A DNA stretch of 64,000 nt from Candidatus Bathyarchaeota archaeon (GCA_963717465.1 OY970340.1:544001-608000); one strand, 5' to 3'; counted from the first letter of the stretch, positions 6,351 through 16,789 are shown. Notes: generated by a model from the letters alone, not told the origin. Numbers and translations are program-made.

Positions 6351-7445
6351 ATGGAGAGGAAACAAGTGCCCAAAAACTATACTTACACTGAAGCAGGTGT
6401 AAATCGCAGCAAACGTGCAGAATCCAAAAAAGAATTAAAAACGCTGTTTGAGACCTACAAGCAGAGTTACTTCGGCGATGTTTTGCGTTTGCCATACGGT
6501 AACGTTTTTCCCATCGGCGCGAACACTTTCTTGGATTTAGTAATCGAGGGTGTAGGTACAAAAGTTCTCATGGCACAACTGGCAGAGAAGTATGACACCA
6601 TTGGCATTGATGCTGTTGCAATGGCTGTTAATGATGTAATACGTTCAGGTGCTAAACCGCTCGCCATCGCAGATAACATTCATGCTAAAGCCAGTGACCC
6701 TGCACTGGTGAAAGCGTGGCTGCAGGGTATCGCTAAGGGAGCTATTGAATCTGAATGTCCAGTTACAGGCGGAGAAATCGGCGACGTAGCTGAAATAATT
6801 AATGGAATTCGTGAAAACGTTGGTTTTGACCTGGTTGTCTCCTCCATAGGGCAAGTAAGAAGAAAAGATGTCATAACGGGAGAGAACATCAAAGTCGGTG
6901 ACCCGATTGTTGGTTTAGCAAGCAGTGGTGTGCATAGTAACGGCATAACCCTAGTGAGAAAGATTCTTTTTAAACAGTGGGGTGGAAAATACGAGCCAAC
7001 GGATGTCCCCCAAGGATTAGAAAGACAGGTTGCATTGGAAGTTCTTGAGCCAACAAGAATCTACGTGAAAGAACTTTTAGCATTAGCTAGAGAAGTAAAG
7101 ATTAAAGCAGCAGTACACATAACAGGCGATGCTTACAATAAATTCTTAAACTTGAGCAATTATTCGCCAGGCATAGGTTTCGAGTTCAGCAATTTTAAAC
7201 CGCAACCAGTTTTTGGCTTAATCCAAAGGACAGCAGAGGAATTGGGATACAATATCTCAGATGAGGAGATGTTCAAAACCTTCAACATGGGATGGGGCTT
7301 TGCCGTAATAGTCGACAAAAAGGACACGGAGAAAGCTGTAAACACTCTTGAAGAAGTCCATGCGGCGCCTGAAATCATCGGAAAAATCACTAAAACAGGT
7401 AAAGTGGAAGTGCACTTCAACAATAAAAAGATGATTTTAACCTAA
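6351..7445 (+). CDS. purM: AIR synthase (phosphoribosylformylglycinamidine cyclo-ligase)
   Basis: YTEAGV, EGVGTK, GIDAVAMAVND, SSGVHSNG, AVHITG, FKTFNMGWG. Confidence 0.95.
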   Translation: MERKQVPKNYTYTEAGVNRSKRAESKKELKTLFETYKQSYFGDVLRLPYGNVFPIGANTFLDLVIEGVGTKVLMAQLAEKYDTIGIDAVAMAVNDVIRSGAKPLAIADNIHAKASDPALVKAWLQGIAKGAIESECPVTGGEIGDVAEIINGIRENVGFDLVVSSIGQVRRKDVITGENIKVGDPIVGLASSGVHSNGITLVRKILFKQWGGKYEPTDVPQGLERQVALEVLEPTRIYVKELLALAREVKIKAAVHITGDAYNKFLNLSNYSPGIGFEFSNFKPQPVFGLIQRTAEELGYNISDEEMFKTFNMGWGFAVIVDKKDTEKAVNTLEEVHAAPEIIGKITKTGKVEVHFNNKKMILT

Positions 7446-7502: not shown

Positions 7503-7754
7503 ATGAAATACGCTGCGAAAATCGAAGTTAGCCTAAAACCTGGCCATAGTAACCCAGAAGGCGAAACAACTGCACATTTACTAAAAGAATTAGGATACAG
7601 TGTAAAGGCTGTGGATGTAAGCAAAGTCTACATAGTTACCCTTGAAGCCTCAAACCGTGTGGAAGCCAAAGCCAAAGCGGAAGAGATGAGCAAACGGTTA
7701 CTGGCTAACCCGACTAAAGACAATTACTCGATAATTGTTGAGGAGCAAAAATGA
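7503..7754 (+). CDS. purS: FGAM synthase subunit PurS
   Basis: LKPG..NPEG and RLLANP motifs, 83 aa, directly before purL. Confidence 0.93.
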   Translation: MKYAAKIEVSLKPGHSNPEGETTAHLLKELGYSVKAVDVSKVYIVTLEASNRVEAKAKAEEMSKRLLANPTKDNYSIIVEEQK

Positions 7755-10144
7755 ACACGAGCCTCATCTTTCGCGCAAAAAGACAAGTTGCTTTTTGAGG
7801 TAGTCATTGGCAGAAGCAAATGATGAGCAGCTTGTTGAAGTAAACAATGAGTTAAGTTTAGGTTTTAGCATTCACGAACTTAAAAACATTCAAGAGTATT
7901 TCAAGAAAGAGAACCGAAACGCCACAGACGTGGAGCTTCAAACCATCAGTCAAACTTGGTCAGAACACTGCTACCACAAAACCTTCAAGGGAAAAGTCAA
8001 AGTAGGCAACAAAGAAATTGATAGCCTCTTTAAAACTTACATTGCCAAGGCAACAAAAGAAATCAATCCGCATTGGTGCTTTAGTGTTTTTGAAGACAAT
8101 GCAGGAATAATCCGCTTTGACAAAGGCTTTGGAATAGCGGCAAAAGTTGAAACGCACAATCATCCCTCAGCTGTTGAACCTTTCGGTGGAGCAGCCACAG
8201 GCACAGGCGGCGTAATACGGGACATTCTTGGAGTATGGGCTGACCCAATCGCATGCACGGACGTGCTGGGTTTTGGACCTTTAGATTACGATTACCAAAA
8301 ACTGCCTGCAGGAATAAAACATCCTAAATACGTTTACAGGGGCGTTGTTTCAGGCATAGGCACTTATGGAAACAACATGGGCATTCCAACAGTTAACGGA
8401 GCAGTATATTTTGATGAGAGTTACACAGGGAACGTCATTGTTTACTGTGGATGCGTAGGACTTCTGCCGCTTGAAAAATACATTAAAAATGCGAAGCCAA
8501 ACCACATCGTTGTTTTAGCTGGTGGAAAAACAGGCAGAGACGGAATCCACGGCGTAACCTTCGCTTCAGCTGAATTAACAGAGAAATCAGAAGTAGTTTC
8601 TCGTCCTGCTGTGCAAATTGCGGATCCAATAGAGGAAGAAAAACTTAAACGTGCAATAATTGAGATTCGAGACCGTAGGATTAGGCTCTGCAACAACAGA
8701 TCTTGGCGGAGGAGGATTATCCTCAGCTCTTGGGGAAACAGCTGAAAAATACAATTGTGGAACAACCATTGACCTGGCGAAGATTCCGTTGAAGTATCAG
8801 GGTTTAGCACCTTGGGAAATTTACATTTCAGAATCTCAAGAAAGGATGCTGCTGACTGTTTCACCTGAAAACTTGGATGCTGTAATGGCGGTTTTCGAAA
8901 AAGAAGATGTACAAGCAACTGCAATAGGCACGTTGACAACTGAGCGCCGTTTAAAACTGAAATATCAGCAGCGAAGTTGTTGCGGATTTGGAAATGGATT
9001 TTCTTTTTAACCCAATTAAAACCACGAAAACCGCAGTAATCGAAAACGTCTGTTTCACTGAACCCGAATTTTCTGAGCCTACAAACTTAACTCAGACCCT
9101 ACTGCAATTGATTTCTGCTCCAAACATTGCCAGCAAAGAAAGCGTAATTCGCAGTTACGACCATGAAGTGAAGGGAAACACGTTACTTAAACCGTTGCAG
9201 GGCAAGTACGCTGGACCAAACGATGCAGCCGTGCTAAAACCACTTGACAGTTCATTGAAAGGCTTGGTTATTTCTTGCGGTATGAACCCGAATTACGGCA
9301 AAATCGACGCTTACTGGATGGCAGCTTCAGCCCTCGATGAGGCAGTGAGAAATAATGTTGCGGTTGGCGGCAGAAGAATTGCCTTGCTGGATAATTTCGT
9401 ATGGGGAAATCCTGAGAAACCAGAACGATTAGGCTCACTTGTAAGAGCCTGTGAAGCTTGTTATGATTTTGCCAAGATATTTAAGAACCCCCTTCATATC
9501 CGGCAAGGATAGCCTCTACAACGAATCCCCGCTTGGTCCAGTAACGCCAACATTACTGATAACAGCAATCGGTGTAATTCCGAACATTCAATCAACCGTT
9601 TCCATGGATCTGAAAGCACCTGGCAACGCACTCTACATAATAGGTGAAACATACAATGAGCTAGGCGGCTCCGAATACTACAAGCAAAAAGGCTTTCTCG
9701 GCGCAACAGTACCCAAAGGTACATGGTGGCAAAGCAAAAAAAACCTTTAAAGCGGTAACTAAAGCCATCGATTACGGCTTAATCAAGTCTTGCCATGACT
9801 TATCTGAAGGTGGATTAGCAGTTGCAGCTGCTGAGATGGCTTTTGCAGGCGGCTACGGATTAGAACTGGATTTAAAAAAGGTTCCAGGTAAGGGTTTTGA
9901 TAGAAATGATTTTGTTCTCTTTTCAGAATCAAACAGCCGTTTCCTGCTTGAAGTGGCAGAAAAGGAGAAAAAAGATTTTGAAGCCTTGATGAAAGGGAAA
10001 GTCTGCGTTCAAATCGGGAAAGTAACAAGAGAAGAAAAGCTTCTCATTCATGGGTTGGATGGATCGGTTGTCGTAGATGCTTCATTATCTAGCTTGATTG
10101 ATAGTTGGAAGAAAACATTAAGCAGCGAGGCGCAGCCAAGTTGA
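7751..10144 (+). CDS. purL: FGAM synthase subunit PurL (split by several frameshifts, probably assembly errors)
   Basis: Consecutive fragments: [76 protein letters not shown]. Confidence 0.92.
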
Positions 10145-10958
10145 AGCGGGAAGAAATTAAAATTTGCGTTCTACGAGTTGGAGGAACGAACTGTGACGCA
10201 GAAACCCAGCGGGCCATCCAAGAGTTTGGTGTGCAAGCCCAAGTTTTGCATGTTAACGAGTTAATAAAAAAGCCAAACCTTCTAGATTTTCATGCTTTGG
10301 TTTTTCCAGGCGGCTTCTCTTTCGGCGATTACGTGCGGTCAGGCGTGATTTTTGCCAGAATGCTTTCAGCAAAATTGGGAAAGGAAATGAACACTTTTGT
10401 CGATGAAGGCAGACCGATTCTGGGAATTTGCAACGGTTTTCAAATACTTGTTGAATACGGGTTACTTCCAGGCTTTGAAGGCATGAGCGATTACCCCGAA
10501 GCTTCGCTGGCCAAACAACCAGCCAAGGCTACAAATGCCAATGGATTCACCTTAGAAGCGAAAACAAGGGAAAATGCGTCTTTTCAAGCAAAATCCCAAC
10601 AGGCAAAATTCTACGAATGCCGATTGCACACGGTGAAGGGCGACTGCTGTTTCCAAAAGAGAAAGAAGAGAAAATGTTGGCTAAACTCATTGATGAGGAC
10701 ATGCTGGTGTTCCGTTACTGCGGTGAAAACGGTGAACCTGCAGAGGGGAAATACCCAATTAATCCAAACGGCTCATTCAGTGACATCGCTGGAATATGCA
10801 ATAAGGAAGGTAACATTTTCGGTTTGATGCCGCATCCTGAAAGAGCAATGTACTGGTGGCAACAACCCGACTGGACACGGCAAAAAAGAATGGCGCAGTT
10901 CGGTGATGGAAAACTGGTTTTTGAAAGTCTGATTGAAAATTTAGTGAAAAAGCCGTAA
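10141..10958 (+). CDS. purQ: FGAM synthase glutaminase subunit PurQ (frameshifted near 10500-10620)
   Basis: [21 protein letters not shown] in the first fragment; [20 protein letters not shown] in the second. Confidence 0.92.
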
Positions 10959-11853
10959 GTCTTCAGCTTTAGGCAAACCTTCGCGGGCTCCCATTTTCAT
11001 CACTGACCTTGAAGCAACAAAATTGCCCAGTCGCCCACATTCCTGCAGATTTTTCTCTTTAAGTAAACCATAGAGGAAGCCAGCGTTAAAGGCGTCACCA
11101 GCTCCGGTTGTATCAACAACCTTAACTTTGAATGACTCTATCATGAAGCGTTCATGCCCATCTGTAACGTAAGCAGCCATTGCTGCCAAGTTTAACGGCG
11201 ACAATTTTAACGCCTTTATCGATCATGAAGTCTGCACTTCTACTGTAGTCGTGTTCGCCCGTTAAAAGTTCAAGTTCAAACGCGTTTGGCAGCAGAAGAT
11301 AAGTCTTGTTTATAATCTCCTCTAAAGCCTCCATGCCTTTTCTCGCGTAAACTGCACCAGGGTCAAAACTTACTTTCACGCTATTGGGAAGGGCAGTAAG
11401 GAGTTTTTTTTGTGTTTGCATTGATTTTTCTCCGACAAAAGAGGTTAAATGGATAAACTTTGATTTGAAACCATAATCTTGGTTTATCTCTTCAAGGGAT
11501 ATCGTGTCGTTAACGCCTGAGTTAATGTACAGGGCTCTTGCACCTTTCTTGTCAACGAAGCCGAGCACTGAACCACTTTTTCCCGTGGCATGAATTATTC
11601 CGTTTGTGTTGACGCCTTCTTTTTCGAAGCCTTTGCAGAGAAATTCGCCTTCTCTATCGTCTCCGACTTTGCCTATGAAGCCTGCTTTGCAGCCAAGCCT
11701 TGCAAGTCCAACAATCGTGTTTGCTGCTGAGCCTCCGCATGCTTCAACGTAATCTTCAATGAAGCTTTCCTCTTCTGCTTTCGCGATACGGTTTACTTTG
11801 AAGAGCGTGTCAACGTTGAGTGCCCCAAAGCCTACAACATCAAAATTTGTCAT
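10941..11853 (-). CDS. PfkB/ribokinase-family kinase (EhaT-like), frameshift near 11170
   Basis: [32 protein letters not shown]; start overlaps the stop of the Ftr-like gene. Confidence 0.88.
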
Positions 11854-12761
11854 GGAAACAACTCACGCAATGATATTATGTAATCCCCCAGTTTACCGCC
11901 GTAATTGCCAGCAGAAACCTTGACAACTCCATCAACACCTAAAACAGCTTGAATACCTACTTTCGTAGCTTTTTTTACTGCATCCAAAGAAACTCCGTTT
12001 AACACTATCTCCGCAATGTAACCCACGCCTTTTGGAACTTGAGATTCACCAGCTAACCGTTCTCGGAGGCTGGGACAATACGGGTGATTAGTTGTAGGAC
12101 CTATCTGCGGGAAATGTGTTTCAGGCTTTGAGCCGGCAGAGCAAACATCAAAAGGAGTAACTACATCATTCACCTTGCGGATTGCCGCTAACGCTTTTTG
12201 AGAGGCTTTTTTGAAGGATTCTTTTGAAGTGCACATTATCCAAAAGTTGCCGCCCATAACGCCCCTTGCATACCCTAAGTATCGTTCAATGATGAAGTCT
12301 GGAACCATTAGTGGAACAACGATTACTTCTCTGCCATAACGGTTTTCAACCCATTCGTAACCGTCTCCGCAGTGGCCCACACGCTCCATCATATCCAGTT
12401 TTCCCTCAGGCGAAGGCAAAGCGTCAAAAACAGCGGTGAAAGGCTTGACAAGTATATCTTGACGAATTCGATAGGAGAGTTCAGCTTCAAACTTTTTCAG
12501 TGATTCAGCGAATGTTTTTTTTGGGTTTATTGCACCCCAGAACTGCACTAAGGCGCCTTTACGTTTATCAGGCGTTTCCTTTTCGCTTAGCCACCGTTCT
12601 ATTCCACCTTCAACTCTGCCGATAACAACCGATGGTGTTGCAGTTGAATCCTCAGCAGCCTGCCTAAGGGTCTGTTCATCATCCGCCGTTACAATAAACC
12701 TGCAATATATTCCAGCAAACGCCTCAGCATAAGTATCCTCAACTAAGGGTTTTTTAACCAT
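11850..12761 (-). CDS. ftr: Formylmethanofuran:H4MPT formyltransferase paralogue (Ftr-2/EhaS-like)
   Basis: Ftr-family motifs [35 protein letters not shown]; divergent blocks [29 protein letters not shown]. Confidence 0.85.
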
Positions 12762-13834
12762 TCATCCAAGCCTCCCAATTGCTACTCCGCGAACTTTCTT
12801 GCGAAATTCGCTGCTCTCTTTAACTAACGATTCCATATTTTGAGGAGTTACTATTTGAACTTTGGGAAAAACAGCCAATTCTTTCAGCAAAGTTTCACCT
12901 ATGCCTAAGCTGCTTGAGCAGTTTAGGAGACCATGATTTGATTGCATCCAACGTTTTGGCTTTTCCCAATTTACAGAAAATCTCCATGATAACAGCAGTC
13001 ACAAGGTTACTTTCAGATAAAACGGCGATTTGAGCGTTTTTTACTGCGTAACCGTTACCGTTAAAGGAAACCGTTAATCCATCATGACTCATTCACAAGT
13101 TTGAAGGCTTCAACATCAGTTATGCTGTCGCCAACATACAATACATCCTCTAATTTAGCTTCCAAGCGTTTTACTGCGTCTTGGATGGCTTCAGCTTTCT
13201 GCTGTCCACCAACAGTTGTCACCTCAGCAAAAATTCTTCCAACACTCATTCTTGGGATTTGCACCCAGAAAATCTCGTCAAGCCGCCTCAAGGTTTCTTG
13301 GTCTTTTTGGGAAAAGTCCTTGATGGATTTTGCTTCTTTGGGAATTTCGATTAGTGGCATTTGAGCAATTTCCAAAGCAATCATCTGCAAATCGTCGTTT
13401 CTTCTTCCGTTGTTGCTTGGTATTTGTTAAGGCAGAGTTTAGTGCAGTAAGTGTTCTTGTATGGAAACGTTAAAGCCTTACACAGAGGCTTTAGGTAATG
13501 CTCGTAACTTGTACTGACAATGAATGAGTCAGAAATCTCTTGAATATGACTCATGGTTTTTTTGCTGTCTGCAATCAAAACGATGTGTTCTGCAGAGAAA
13601 TCTTCCATCTGTTTATCGCTTACTTTGGTAAGCCTTGAAAAAGGGCAAAATCAACTTTAAAGTGCTGCCTGCAGTGTAACCTGGTTTTTGCAGTACATCT
13701 GCAAGTACATCATCATACTTGCTTATGTTAGTAAATAATTTTTCGCCTTCTGGAATAAAATGTGCTGCTAACTCGAATGCATTATCATTCTTGGATATTG
13801 GGCCTTCACAATCGGATACGAAGATGCGCTTCAC
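12762..13834 (-). CDS. HAD-superfamily hydrolase, EhaR-like (several frameshifts)
   Basis: GTG at 13834 just after the purD stop. HAD motifs in successive fragments: [44 protein letters not shown]; ends [10 protein letters not shown]. Confidence 0.8.
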
Positions 13835-13836
13835 GC

Positions 13837-15255
13837 TTAGCGCCTCAAATGCTCCATGTGGCTTACACTTTTTGCAATATGTGATTTTGAAGCTATGTCT
13901 GATCGGTTCCAAAGTGCGCCGCCAGTGATAGCTTTGGCGCCTTCTTGAGAGATTTGGCGTGCTTCCTCGATGGTTTTGCCTACGCCTAGAACGCCGACGG
14001 TTCTTGACTTCAGAGTCCAGTTCTTGCCATCGTTTGTTTCCATTGAGCCAGGGTAAATGCGGATTCTATCACCGTATTTACTTGTCAATGCGTAAGCTTT
14101 TGAGAGGTCAATTGGAGTATGTAACTGCTGATTTATCCACTTTGTCTGGATAAACTTCTTTATAGCCGCCGTAGTCTGATGGCACTTTGTAAGTTAACAC
14201 GGTTGCTGCATTCTCAACTTGCAGACTGGTCAGGTTGCCCTCAATCATTTTGAAGCAGACATCGACAAAATCATCCTTTATTATTGGCAGTATATTGATG
14301 ATTTCAGGGTCTCCTGGGCGACTGTTGTTTTCAAGAACTTTAATGCCTTTGCCAGTATGCATGAAGGCAAGATACAAGGGCACGCCGCGTAAAGCTGAAG
14401 CGTCCTTAATTTGCGATTGCCATCCATTAAAGATTTTTTAGCTAACTCAATTTCATGTTTTCGTTCTGCTTTAGTTAGGAAAGGCAACTTGCCATCTGCA
14501 TCTTTGTAGGAGCCCATTCCTCCAGTGTTTGGGCCCTTATCATCATCAAAAGCCCGTTTATAATCGCGAGTATCAGGTAACGGAATAAAGTGTTTTCCGT
14601 CGCAAAAAGCCATGAAGCTGGATTCTTCTCCATCTACTTTTTCCTCGATTATCACTGAGCCGTACTGGAAGTTTGATAGAGAAATACTCAAAAAGTTCTT
14701 CTCTTGTGGTAAAATGGTCGCCCCAAACGCCGACGCCTTTTCCTGCAGCAGGCTTATCAGGTTTCACTACTGCTTGGTTGTCCAGTTCATCAAGCCATTT
14801 ATAGACGTCTTTTTTGACTTCATCTTTGCCTTTGTAATCGTTTGGGTTGAAAATCTTGAAACGCGGGTTTGCTTCTGGCGCTATCTCTTGAAACAATAAA
14901 CGTTGCTTTACCTTGCTTTCTTCTATGGCGTATTCTTGCTTGGGACAAATTACAGGTATTCCAGTTTGCTTTTCGACGAGGTCTCTTATGCCGTCGATTA
15001 TTGGTTTTTCAGAACCAACTAGCGCAAAATCAATGTTGCCTTGTTTTCTTTTGCAAACTTGCAAATTTGAGCAACATCCAAGTTGGGGATAACAACATGT
15101 TTAACGGCTTTTTCAACGTTGAATGGGTTACGTTGTTTATCGGCAATGTACAAGTCTACTTTGTATTTTTGGCTTCTTGCAAGTGCATCAACCATGGCAG
15201 CTTCTCTTGACCCATAGGAAACAACTAACACGCCAATCTTTTCCATAAGAGACAA
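13837..15255 (-). CDS. purD: Phosphoribosylamine-glycine ligase (several frameshifts)
   Basis: [67 protein letters not shown]. Confidence 0.92.
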
Positions 15256-15289: not shown

Positions 15290-16789
15290 TTACTTTGTCA
15301 CGGTTCGGGATTCGGGGGTTTCATCCATTTCGTAAATTCGTGTTTTTTCTTGGTAGCCGTTTTCGAATTTCTTTTTCATTTCATCAGCCATTTGCTGTGC
15401 GAGGGGTGTTGGGTACTTGCCAGTTATGCAAGCTAAGCATAATTGGTCGCGGGTTTTGCCTGTTGAACGTATTAGCGCCTCAATGGATTGGTAGCAAACG
15501 TTGTCTGCGCCTATAATTTTGGCAATTTCTTGAGCGTTATGTTTTGAACCGACGAGTTGTCCGTAAGTTGACATGTCAATTCCGTAGAAGCAGGGACCGA
15601 TTATTCTGGGAAAAGTCACGAAAACATGTACTTTCTTAGCGCCTGAACGACGCAGTTTATCAATTATAACTTTTGTTGTATCTCCACGAACGATGCTGTC
15701 TTCAGTTACTATTACACGTTTACCGTCAACTTTTGAACCTAAAATGTTAATTTTCTTATCAATCGTTAAGAAACGCTCATTGTTTAATAGTATGAAGGCT
15801 CGCTCAGTTACGTACCTGTGCCGCCTTGACGCTCGCTCCCATCGCAGTCCCGAGGCTTCATGTACCCCCATAGCGGGATCATCGCCGGTTTCAGGTATTG
15901 AAAGTATAATATCTCCATCTTTGGCAATTTCAGGATACTCTTTCACTATGTTTCGTCCGAAGTCTTCTCGGATTTCATACACATATTTTCCATTGAATTT
16001 TGAATCAGGTCTTGCAAAATATGCATATTCAAACGCGCAGAAAGCTTCTCGGGGATTCTTGATTAATTGTTCCCGTTTAAAGCCGTCTTTTGTAACTGTT
16101 ACAAGTTCACCAGGGTTAAGCTCGAAGTCTCGTACAAGACTATTCATGTCTAAACTTACTGTTTCAGAGGAAAAAGCAAAAGTTGCCCCGTCAAGTCCAT
16201 GTCCAGCACATAAGGGTTTTATTCCATGTGGATCTTTGAAGGCAAAGAATTCGCCTTCGCCTGTTATTCCAGTTACGGAGAATGCGCCGTCTAAGACTTC
16301 CATGCAGGATTGAACGGCAGATTTTAGGTCTTTTCCCTCTTTAAGCCCTAAGAGAAGTTTGTGGCAGAGTATGTCCGAATCGCATGTGTAATTAAAGTCT
16401 GGGAAGTTTTGGTCCATTTCTTTTTTTAATGGCGCAGTATTAACTATGTTGCCGTTGAATGATAACGCGATTTTTATTTTACCTTCTGAGGCTGTAACTG
16501 GCTGAGTCCCTTTAATCAGGGAGGATTCATCGCATTTACCTGACGTTGTGTATCGAACATTGCCGATGCCTATGGATCCTGGCAAGCGCCCGAACCATTC
16601 ATTTATTGCACTGGTTTTTATTTTTGGAACTAAATCGAGGTTTTTGTAAATGTAAAATTGCTTGTTGTTGTATGTTAGAAAGCCGTGTGATTGGTGACCT
16701 CTGTGATTTTGGGCTCTTAGCCCCCAATAAACGTATGGAAAAACAGGTATGTTTTCGAAGTTTATTGCACCAAAGATACCGCAGCCTAT
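15290..16789 (-). CDS. purF: Amidophosphoribosyltransferase
   Basis: Frame stays open upstream of the track start and reads IGCGIFGA...QNHRGHQSHG (Ntn Cys at 16781-16783). Also NGNIVN, DPHGIKPL, CAFEYAYFARPDS, EDSIVRGDT, PCFYGID, CLAC. Exact start uncertain. Confidence 0.92.
   Translation of the reverse strand: MGCGIFGAINFENIPVFPYVYWGLRAQNHRGHQSHGFLTYNNKQFYIYKNLDLVPKIKTSAINEWFGRLPGSIGIGNVRYTTSGKCDESSLIKGTQPVTASEGKIKIALSFNGNIVNTAPLKKEMDQNFPDFNYTCDSDILCHKLLLGLKEGKDLKSAVQSCMEVLDGAFSVTGITGEGEFFAFKDPHGIKPLCAGHGLDGATFAFSSETVSLDMNSLVRDFELNPGELVTVTKDGFKREQLIKNPREAFCAFEYAYFARPDSKFNGKYVYEIREDFGRNIVKEYPEIAKDGDIILSIPETGDDPAMGVHEASGLRWERASRRHRYVTERAFILLNNERFLTIDKKINILGSKVDGKRVIVTEDSIVRGDTTKVIIDKLRRSGAKKVHVFVTFPRIIGPCFYGIDMSTYGQLVGSKHNAQEIAKIIGADNVCYQSIEALIRSTGKTRDQLCLACITGKYPTPLAQQMADEMKKKFENGYQEKTRIYEMDETPESRTVTK

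Follow-up and report, generated by a model that had tools for sequence, protein, structure and literature searches.

A HAD-like phosphatase, an Ftr paralog, and a PfkB kinase encoded behind purD as a probable modular system for glycinamide ribonucleotide formylation in Bathyarchaeia

A Candidate Step 3 System in a Bathyarchaeal Purine Operon

A stretch of 64,000 nt from a Candidatus Bathyarchaeota archaeon (GCA_963717465.1 OY970340.1:544001-608000; the whole stretch is hereafter termed the window) encodes, directly behind purD in a purine operon, a HAD-like (EhaR-like) phosphatase-family protein, a paralog of formylmethanofuran:tetrahydromethanopterin (H4MPT) formyltransferase termed Ftr2, and a PfkB/ribokinase-family kinase. 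In archaea lacking both PurN and PurT, the trio probably constitutes a modular system for step 3 of purine biosynthesis, the conversion of glycinamide ribonucleotide (GAR) to formylglycinamide ribonucleotide (FGAR). Ftr2 would be the catalytic core of this system, passing a formyl group from formyl-H4MPT or formyl-methanofuran to the glycinamide amine. Its obligate partners, the HAD-like protein and the kinase of ribokinase type, would act on the substrate at its ribose-phosphate end.

Pfam matches and maps of open reading frames (ORFs) placed purF, purD, the HAD-like gene, Ftr2, and the PfkB kinase gene head to tail on the minus strand. The HAD-like gene (12762..13834, minus strand) begins with a GTG start 2 nt behind the TAA stop of purD and carried its HAD Pfam matches on one frame piece, while Ftr2 (11850..12761, minus strand) follows with a 0-nt gap as an intact gene for a protein of 303 aa with the domains FTR and FTR_C. 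The kinase gene (10941..11853, minus strand) shares 4 nt at its start with the end of Ftr2 and matched PF00294 on both of its frame pieces (1.2e-32 and 1e-20). Purine steps 1, 2, 4, and 5 are all encoded within the window. No hydrogenase genes were identified in the operon of the trio, the neighbors of which were purF and purD upstream and a convergent purQ. Gene content, order, and junctions were as given in a preliminary description of this DNA, which had overlooked that most of the frames are broken (see below).

The same description had noted no purN or purT in the cluster and had called the ftr of the operon a divergent paralog, and a search of the whole genome agreed on both points. No PF00551 match was found anywhere in the genome of the window, and the best score for purT in the whole genome was 37.4 bits on TIGR01142 compared to a cut-off of 502. 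A second, higher-scoring, and canonical ftr copy was located at G000:C1:1037705-1038128 (G000 being the genome of the window). The genome encodes FwdA (802 bits) and Mch, and from its gene content both formyl-methanofuran and formyl-H4MPT can be made and should be available; neither an AICARFT domain nor a formate-tetrahydrofolate ligase (FTHFS) was found in it. For the second formylation of the pathway, the genome carries two tandem PurP-like genes outside the window (PF06849, 164 and 152 bits; G000:C1:2509963-2511425, loci L088 and L089), one of which could have a function other than the formylation of 5-aminoimidazole-4-carboxamide ribonucleotide (AICAR).

The Formyltransferase Paralog Ftr2

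Ftr2 matched PF01913 (FTR, 1.9e-43) and PF02741 (FTR_C, 7.2e-54), and its residues 7-302 aligned full-length to the solved Ftr structures 1M5H, 1M5S, and 1FTR with E values of 1e-54 to 8e-24. The residue E251 was invariant in 24/24 Ftr1 and Ftr2 sequences and in 33/33 Ftr2 sequences; Glu252 of FhcD is assigned as the oxyanion stabilizer in the available sections of the structural literature (PMC6926001).

A maximum likelihood tree was constructed from 24 rows, comprising eight HAD-adjacent copies and 16 others that were either second copies from HAD-positive genomes or single copies from genomes with PurT or PurN-like proteins. All eight HAD-adjacent copies formed one clade and the 16 others a second clade (Ftr1), with the split at 100/100, and 16 alignment columns were fixed differently between the two. 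The Ftr2 ortholog of L059, a locus in which the genes are intact, passed NF002554 (332.7 vs 297 bits) and failed TIGR03119 (230.6 vs 292.6 bits). Ftr2 is thus neither the sole ftr nor the canonical one, since it belongs to a separate clade and second copies are present in the same genomes.

A prediction of a complex between the HAD-like protein and Ftr2, made with alignments, returned a score of 0.00 and gave no verdict either way. Ftr2 and PfkB read as a single ORF of 598-606 aa at L105 6755-8551 (G395) and L056 7995-9812. A recurrent Ftr2-PfkB fusion was considered and found unsupported, as the search for longer Ftr2 forms returned one protein of 559 aa at 36% identity and the ORFs of G395 and L056 may be assembly frameshifts.

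The HAD-Like Protein and the PfkB Kinase

The intact ortholog of the HAD-like protein is 360 aa (L059:6911-7990), and the family comprised 634 representative clusters at E <= 0.001. The label "EhaR-like" given earlier was upheld by the Joint Genome Institute annotation of close relatives as "energy-converting hydrogenase A subunit R" and by a match (E 1.6e-30) to the sole solved relative, AF1437 of Archaeoglobus fulgidus (PDB 1Y8A). Organism labels were few among the members of the protein clusters and included Methanomassiliicoccales and one metagenome-assembled genome labeled Aenigmatarchaeota.

The HAD motifs were largely retained among 62 representatives, with D8 in 54, E10 in 56, S/T107 in 62, K212 in 61, D235 in 54, and D239 in 62. 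The residue at position +2 of motif I is Glu (56/62) instead of the usual Asp, and enolase-phosphatase E1 also has Glu at this position. The representatives without the nucleophile (P0218, P0227, P0235, P0244, P0247, P0248, P0250, and P0252) are divergent and some are labeled Methanomassiliicoccales, a group not known to have the H4MPT pathway.

The intact PfkB ortholog (L059:8900-9808) matched PF00294 at 1.9e-51 and its translation contains the GAGD motif. Its score of 169.3 bits on the ribokinase model TIGR02152 lies below the cut-off of 299.65, identifying it as a family member short of the D-ribokinase equivalog, and the nearest solved structures were ribokinases and a fructokinase at approximately E 1e-27. 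The HAD motifs kept in most representatives, the GAGD motif of the kinase, and the oxyanion Glu of Ftr2 would be consistent with catalytic competence of the three proteins.

Conservation and Distribution Across Bathyarchaeia

The 80 best loci for Ftr2 relatives shared 69-81% identity, and 76 of them were labeled Bathyarchaeia or Bathyarchaeota. The HAD-like gene was situated within 1.2 kb upstream of Ftr2 in 78/80 loci (the exceptions being L074 and L081) and PfkB within 1.2 kb downstream in 78/80, with L038 ending at a contig edge and the kinase of L039 lying 3.3 kb away. The HAD-like gene in turn adjoined purD in 72 of 78 loci, the other six being at contig ends. The purF-purD-HAD-Ftr2-PfkB arrangement is far beyond chance, and as the 80 loci represent one class their number measures the stability of this arrangement and not independent recurrence. 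The recurring linkage to pur genes in relatives that the preliminary description had anticipated was therefore observed.

At the level of the phylum, 401 Thermoproteota genomes were compared, and the HAD-like gene was identified in 58/65 Bathyarchaeia and 0/336 others. A PurT-like gene (E <= 1e-40) was present in 5/7 HAD-negative Bathyarchaeia of this sample and in 0/58 that were HAD-positive, and PF00551 matched four Bathyarchaeia. The other two HAD-negative Bathyarchaeia were G345, which has purD together with a PF00551 protein, and G020, which is without a convincing purD. A hand count covered 54 HAD-positive genomes, 51 of which have an Ftr2-type match no more than 1.1 kb from the HAD gene; in the remaining genomes it was 16 kb away (G084), on another contig (G092), or not found, the HAD gene being at a contig end (G335).

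The class-level sample comprised 331 Bathyarchaeia genomes, overlapping or including those of the phylum sample. The HAD-like gene was identified in 184/331, and 12 TIGR01142 matches were obtained at E <= 1e-50, of which 11 were PurT-like (224-303 bits, 457-488 aa) and all from HAD-negative genomes. The remaining match, in G401, had appeared as an overlap of HAD and PurT and was rejected as such because the protein is PurK (463 bits on the PurK equivalog). PurT-like proteins were consequently present in 0/184 HAD-positive compared to 11/147 HAD-negative Bathyarchaeia. Neither the HAD-like gene nor PurT was found in 136 genomes; among 15 of these that were examined, four had purD and 11 did not, and a PF00551 protein was present in exactly the four with purD. 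The switches occurred at the level of families (f7, f8, f10, f12, f13, and f14). The anti-correlation with purN and purT expected in the preliminary description thus held against PurT within Bathyarchaeia, whereas outside the class it was not strict, Ftr2 being reported from PurN-bearing ANME-2a/2b. Of the computational checks named in that description, those carried out did not refute the proposal.

In G237 and G297 (L096 and L097), the gene order is purF-purD-purT-purE, such that the PurT-like gene directly after purD occupies the position of the trio; the protein of G237 scores 472 bits on the PurT equivalog NF006766, above the cut-off of 339. The PurT-like gene of family f7 lies in a different setting (L094 5513-10193 in G002; L095 6779-10773 in G116), adjoining hypA, hypD, and an AIRS-domain gene that is HypE- or PurM-like, with no pur operon.

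Replacement of the Formyltransferase and Domain Fusions

The formyltransferase of the module proved to be replaceable. The operon of G360 (L099 7356-14066) encodes purF, purD, a 330-aa Formyl_trans_N protein that is PurN-like, the HAD-like protein, PfkB, and FolD. G036 and G068 have purF-purD followed by a PurN-like protein of 278-299 aa, with the HAD-like gene, PfkB, and FolD in a second cluster. Each of these three genomes has one Ftr, which belongs to the Ftr1 clade. A diverged PurN-like enzyme here takes the place of Ftr2 with HAD and PfkB kept, an argument for Ftr2 being a formyltransferase of the purine pathway; the same comparison of gene sets argues that HAD and PfkB would serve the substrate side and not a particular one-carbon (C1) carrier. 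An AICARFT-only gene is situated beside FolD and the PfkB of the module in G068 (L100 1308-4292), an arrangement suggesting that in this lineage both purine formylations draw their C1 units from folate.

The PurN-like protein was also found joined to the HAD-like protein in P0194 (599 aa; a cluster of two members), in which a PurN-like domain (approximately residues 3-264) is fused to a HAD-like domain (265-563) and is 47% identical to the G360 protein. Alignment of the four HAD-coupled PurN-like proteins revealed that the N-x-H and Asp catalytic residues were kept, and the N-terminal loop reads S[ST]GRD in these four compared to SGxG[ST]N in canonical PurN (G402) and the HAD-independent G345, G406, and G409. 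This canonical loop presumably holds the GAR phosphate in Escherichia coli PurN. The catalytic residues of PurN are named as His108 and Asp144 in the available sections of Brown et al. (2011; PMC3261824).

Two further proteins, P0210 and P0192, carry the HAD-like domain fused to a domain of the PurT/PurK ATP-grasp class, the signature of which was confined to a 36-residue stretch matching NF006766 at E ~3e-8. In P0210-like proteins of 961-970 aa, the HAD-like domain stands behind an N-terminal part of approximately 590 aa (L130 9001-11892; L131 9001-11910), and at both loci two small conserved ORFs lie upstream of the gene, one of them faintly DUF505-like. PurD was considered as the N-terminal part of P0210 and P0192 and rejected, as no BLASTP similarity was obtained. 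A metagenome scan with P0210 returned two loci only, and no pur genes or kinase were found near them.

Flanking Purine Genes and Frame Breaks

The first gene of the operon is purF, encoding phosphoribosyl pyrophosphate amidotransferase (15290..16651, minus strand; Pfam GATase_7/GATase_6), which is an intact frame with 83.6% identity over 445 aa to the intact L059 ortholog. It is followed by purD for GAR synthetase (13837..15246, minus strand), with GARS_N, GARS_A, and GARS_C matches over five frame pieces. Pfam identified purM, purS, purL, and purQ on the plus strand, convergent on the operon of the trio. They comprise an intact purM for aminoimidazole ribonucleotide synthetase (6351..7445; AIRS and AIRS_C), purS (7503..7754; PF02700 PurS, 1.5e-19), a small purL (7807..10144; FGAR-AT_linker, AIRS, and AIRS_C on five frame pieces), and purQ (10105..10958; GATase_5 at profile positions 2-138 and 126-256 on two pieces separated by one break). 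The convergent 3' ends of purQ and PfkB overlap by 18 nt (10941-10958 of the window).

Alignment to the intact loci L059, L010, and L058 placed single-base indels of purD near 15038, 14679, 14437, and 14121, those of the HAD-like gene near 13628, 13398 (2 nt), 13091, and 12906, and one frame break of PfkB near 11172. The high-scoring segment pairs of purD against L059 alternated between frames. In total, approximately 15 frame breaks due to single-base indels were observed between 7800 and 15300 of the window in purL, purQ, PfkB, the HAD-like gene, and purD.

The breaks could be real in purD, purL, purQ, the HAD-like gene, and PfkB, in which case the cluster would be decaying in the genome of the window and the organism would be a purine auxotroph. 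The density of approximately 15 breaks within 7.5 kb, while purF, purM, purS, and Ftr2 stay intact, is in favor of such a decay. However, ORFs are fragmented across the whole genome, the ORF intactness of this region being at the 12th percentile with 12% of 7.5-kb windows worse; the canonical ftr elsewhere in the genome is broken as well; and the genome, a single 3.05-Mb contig, reaches a marker completeness of only 88%. In addition, the mismatches in the broken genes fell at codon position 3 far more than at position 1, and at position 1 more than at position 2, at rates like those between intact orthologs. Because of the genome-wide fragmentation, the broken canonical ftr, and this third-position pattern, the frame breaks are probably genome-wide assembly noise, and the fragmentation suggests an unpolished long-read assembly. 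Very recent real pseudogenes are less likely, and decay of the cluster with purine auxotrophy is considered distinctly unlikely.

Proposed Mechanism and Alternative Explanations

The comparisons establish the gene identities, the conserved linkage, the separate Ftr clade, the distribution complementary to PurT and PurN, and the exchangeable formyltransferase; which substrate and donor are used, and in what sequence the proteins act, is what we infer for the module. The HAD-like phosphatase would remove the 5'-phosphate of GAR, Ftr2 would formylate the resulting glycinamide riboside by analogy with the methanofuran amine, and PfkB would restore the phosphate on the formylated riboside with ATP, giving a predicted net cost of one ATP per formylation as for PurT. 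This order of dephosphorylation, formylation, and rephosphorylation is plausible, albeit with somewhat less than even confidence. The transfer from formyl-H4MPT to the furan amine is slightly uphill at +4.4 kJ/mol in the available sections of the literature on the formyltransferase (PMC6926001), so an irreversible phosphatase/kinase bracket would help. A fuller model can be put forward tentatively, in which GAR is formylated at the nucleoside level with ATP pulling a near-equilibrium transfer from a low-energy carrier of the methanogen type, the formyltransferase slot accepts an Ftr fold or a PurN fold, and EhaR, EhaS, and EhaT are purine enzymes drawing on a C1 pool replenished by Eha.

Several observations weigh against this interpretation. 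The case for the trio is one of guilt by association, and the genomes compared are kin, with roughly four to six family-level switches that represent few independent gains or losses. Of the three genes in the window, Ftr2 alone is an open frame as assembled and the other two are not. The exclusion of PurN is not strict beyond Bathyarchaeia, as ANME-2a/2b have both Ftr2 and PurN in the sections available of Chadwick et al. (2022; PMC9012536), and formyl-H4MPT is not believed to be a formyl donor according to the available text of Brown et al. (2011; PMC3261824), which gives labeling data as inconsistent. A PurN-like enzyme with FolD adjacent should have an activated donor, leaving its need for a phosphatase and a kinase unexplained. 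Further points concern the HAD-like protein and the Eha operon and bear on the two alternatives that follow.

It may be that Ftr2, or the PurN-like protein in its stead, formylates GAR directly at the nucleotide level, with the HAD-like protein and the kinase in accessory roles. They could be regulators, a pair that repairs or salvages intermediates having lost their phosphate, or could provide a subunit that binds GAR or acts as a scaffold without hydrolysis. Such direct formylation would account for a HAD-like domain that travels with three formylating domains, namely Ftr2, the PurN-like domain, and the ATP-grasp fusion, the last of which (P0210 and P0192) has no kinase or pur genes nearby, and for the 8/62 HAD-like representatives that persist without the nucleophile Asp and the first Asp of motif IV. 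It would also avoid a detour through dephosphorylation that looks wasteful with a formyl-folate donor, FolD being adjacent in G360, G036, and G068. Nevertheless, the core of the HAD-like family has kept a largely complete phosphotransfer motif set, and PfkB not only adjoins Ftr2 in nearly all of the loci described above but stays in all three PurN-like variants. The HAD-coupled PurN-like forms have moreover lost the SGxG[ST]N loop, which fits a phosphate-free substrate if the loop binds phosphate as is presumed. Direct formylation of GAR with accessory partners is held to be unlikely, if the more serious of the alternatives.

The trio might instead be merely co-located with the pur genes and function in the making or recycling of a C1 carrier or in an Eha-linked role, with step 3 carried out by another enzyme such as a PurP paralog. 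The trio of Methanothermobacter is co-transcribed with ehaA-R of the Eha hydrogenase and not with pur genes in the available sections of Kaster et al. (2011; PMC3087415), and the genome of the window has the two PurP-like genes noted above, the function of PurP cluster II being given as unknown in the available text of Brown et al. (2011). Mere co-location nonetheless fails to explain the substitution of a folate-type formyltransferase for Ftr2 in genomes that keep HAD and PfkB, the fusion of the PurN-like and HAD-like domains, the exclusion with PurT, or the occurrence of PurT in the same slot after purD, and is regarded as highly improbable. The preferred reading of the trio as a GAR formylation module accommodates the replaceable formyltransferase and the complementarity with PurT, with its partners predicted to act on the substrate.

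The Step 3 Gap in Other Archaea and Its Significance

A gap at step 3 has been noted since 2011 in Archaeoglobi, Methanobacteriales, and Methanopyrus and was later also reported for anaerobic methanotrophic archaea of the ANME-1 group; purine prototrophy is proven for at least one of these organisms. In the sections available, Brown et al. (2011; PMC3261824) reported that neither purN nor purT could be located in two Archaeoglobi, four Methanobacteriales, and Methanopyrus kandleri, where the order is printed as "Methanomicrobiales" but the species named are Methanobacteriales, and Chadwick et al. (2022; PMC9012536) extended the lack to ANME-1. The latter study also reported Ftr2 in ANME-1, ANME-2a/2b, Archaeoglobales, M. 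kandleri, and Methanothermobacter marburgensis, and in its available sections did not link it to the lack of purN and purT. A full-text literature search, the coverage of which left out subscription journals, found no paper proposing a role of the trio in GAR formylation.

If correct, the module would be a third, non-homologous system for GAR formylation and would close the archaeal purine gap, and the annotation of thousands of genes named "Ftr", "EhaR", and "ribokinase" would be corrected. Purine C8 would then derive from the methanogenic C1 pool, changing models of carbon flow for methanogens, methanotrophs, and Bathyarchaeia, and the presence of three soluble enzymes riding on the eha operon would be explained. 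A phosphatase/kinase bracket, if real, would be a novel means by which ATP drives a group transfer. Through the folate-type variant with a PurN-like protein, HAD, and PfkB, the idea becomes testable in E. coli.

Comparison With Known Systems

Ftr2 shares the two-lobe fold family of Ftr/FhcD (1FTR/2FHJ, 1M5H, 1M5S, and 6S6Y chain D) and keeps the oxyanion Glu. It differs in forming its own clade with 16 clade-specific invariant substitutions, in an insertion of approximately nine residues, and in scoring below the TIGR03119 cut-off. Ftr2 accompanies the HAD and PfkB genes inside a pur operon, whereas the canonical copy is located elsewhere, and its proposed acceptor is the glycinamide amine compared to methanofuran for the canonical enzyme. 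The HAD-like protein has the first motif D-x-E-G-P in common with AF1437 (PDB 1Y8A), a hypothetical protein.

The trio resembles EhaR-EhaS-EhaT at the end of the Methanothermobacter eha operon, which belong to the same HAD-like, Ftr-like, and ribokinase-like families in the available sections of Kaster et al. (2011; PMC3087415), where EhaS and EhaT are treated as hydrogenase subunits. The adjacency and order of the HAD-like, Ftr-like, and PfkB genes are likewise the same in the window (13834-10941), whereas the trio here is inside a purine operon with no eha genes nearby. That Ftr2 and PfkB are orthologous to EhaS and EhaT is taken from the literature only.

PurN catalyzes the reaction proposed for the module, and a PurN-like protein replaces Ftr2 in G360, G036, and G068; the canonical enzyme needs neither a phosphatase nor a kinase, in contrast to the module, and the genome of the window is without PF00551. 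PurT carries out the same step at the same predicted ATP cost and occupies the same operon slot in sister lineages, yet its ATP-grasp fold is unrelated, its formyl source is free formate, and it is absent here and was never found together with the HAD-like gene.

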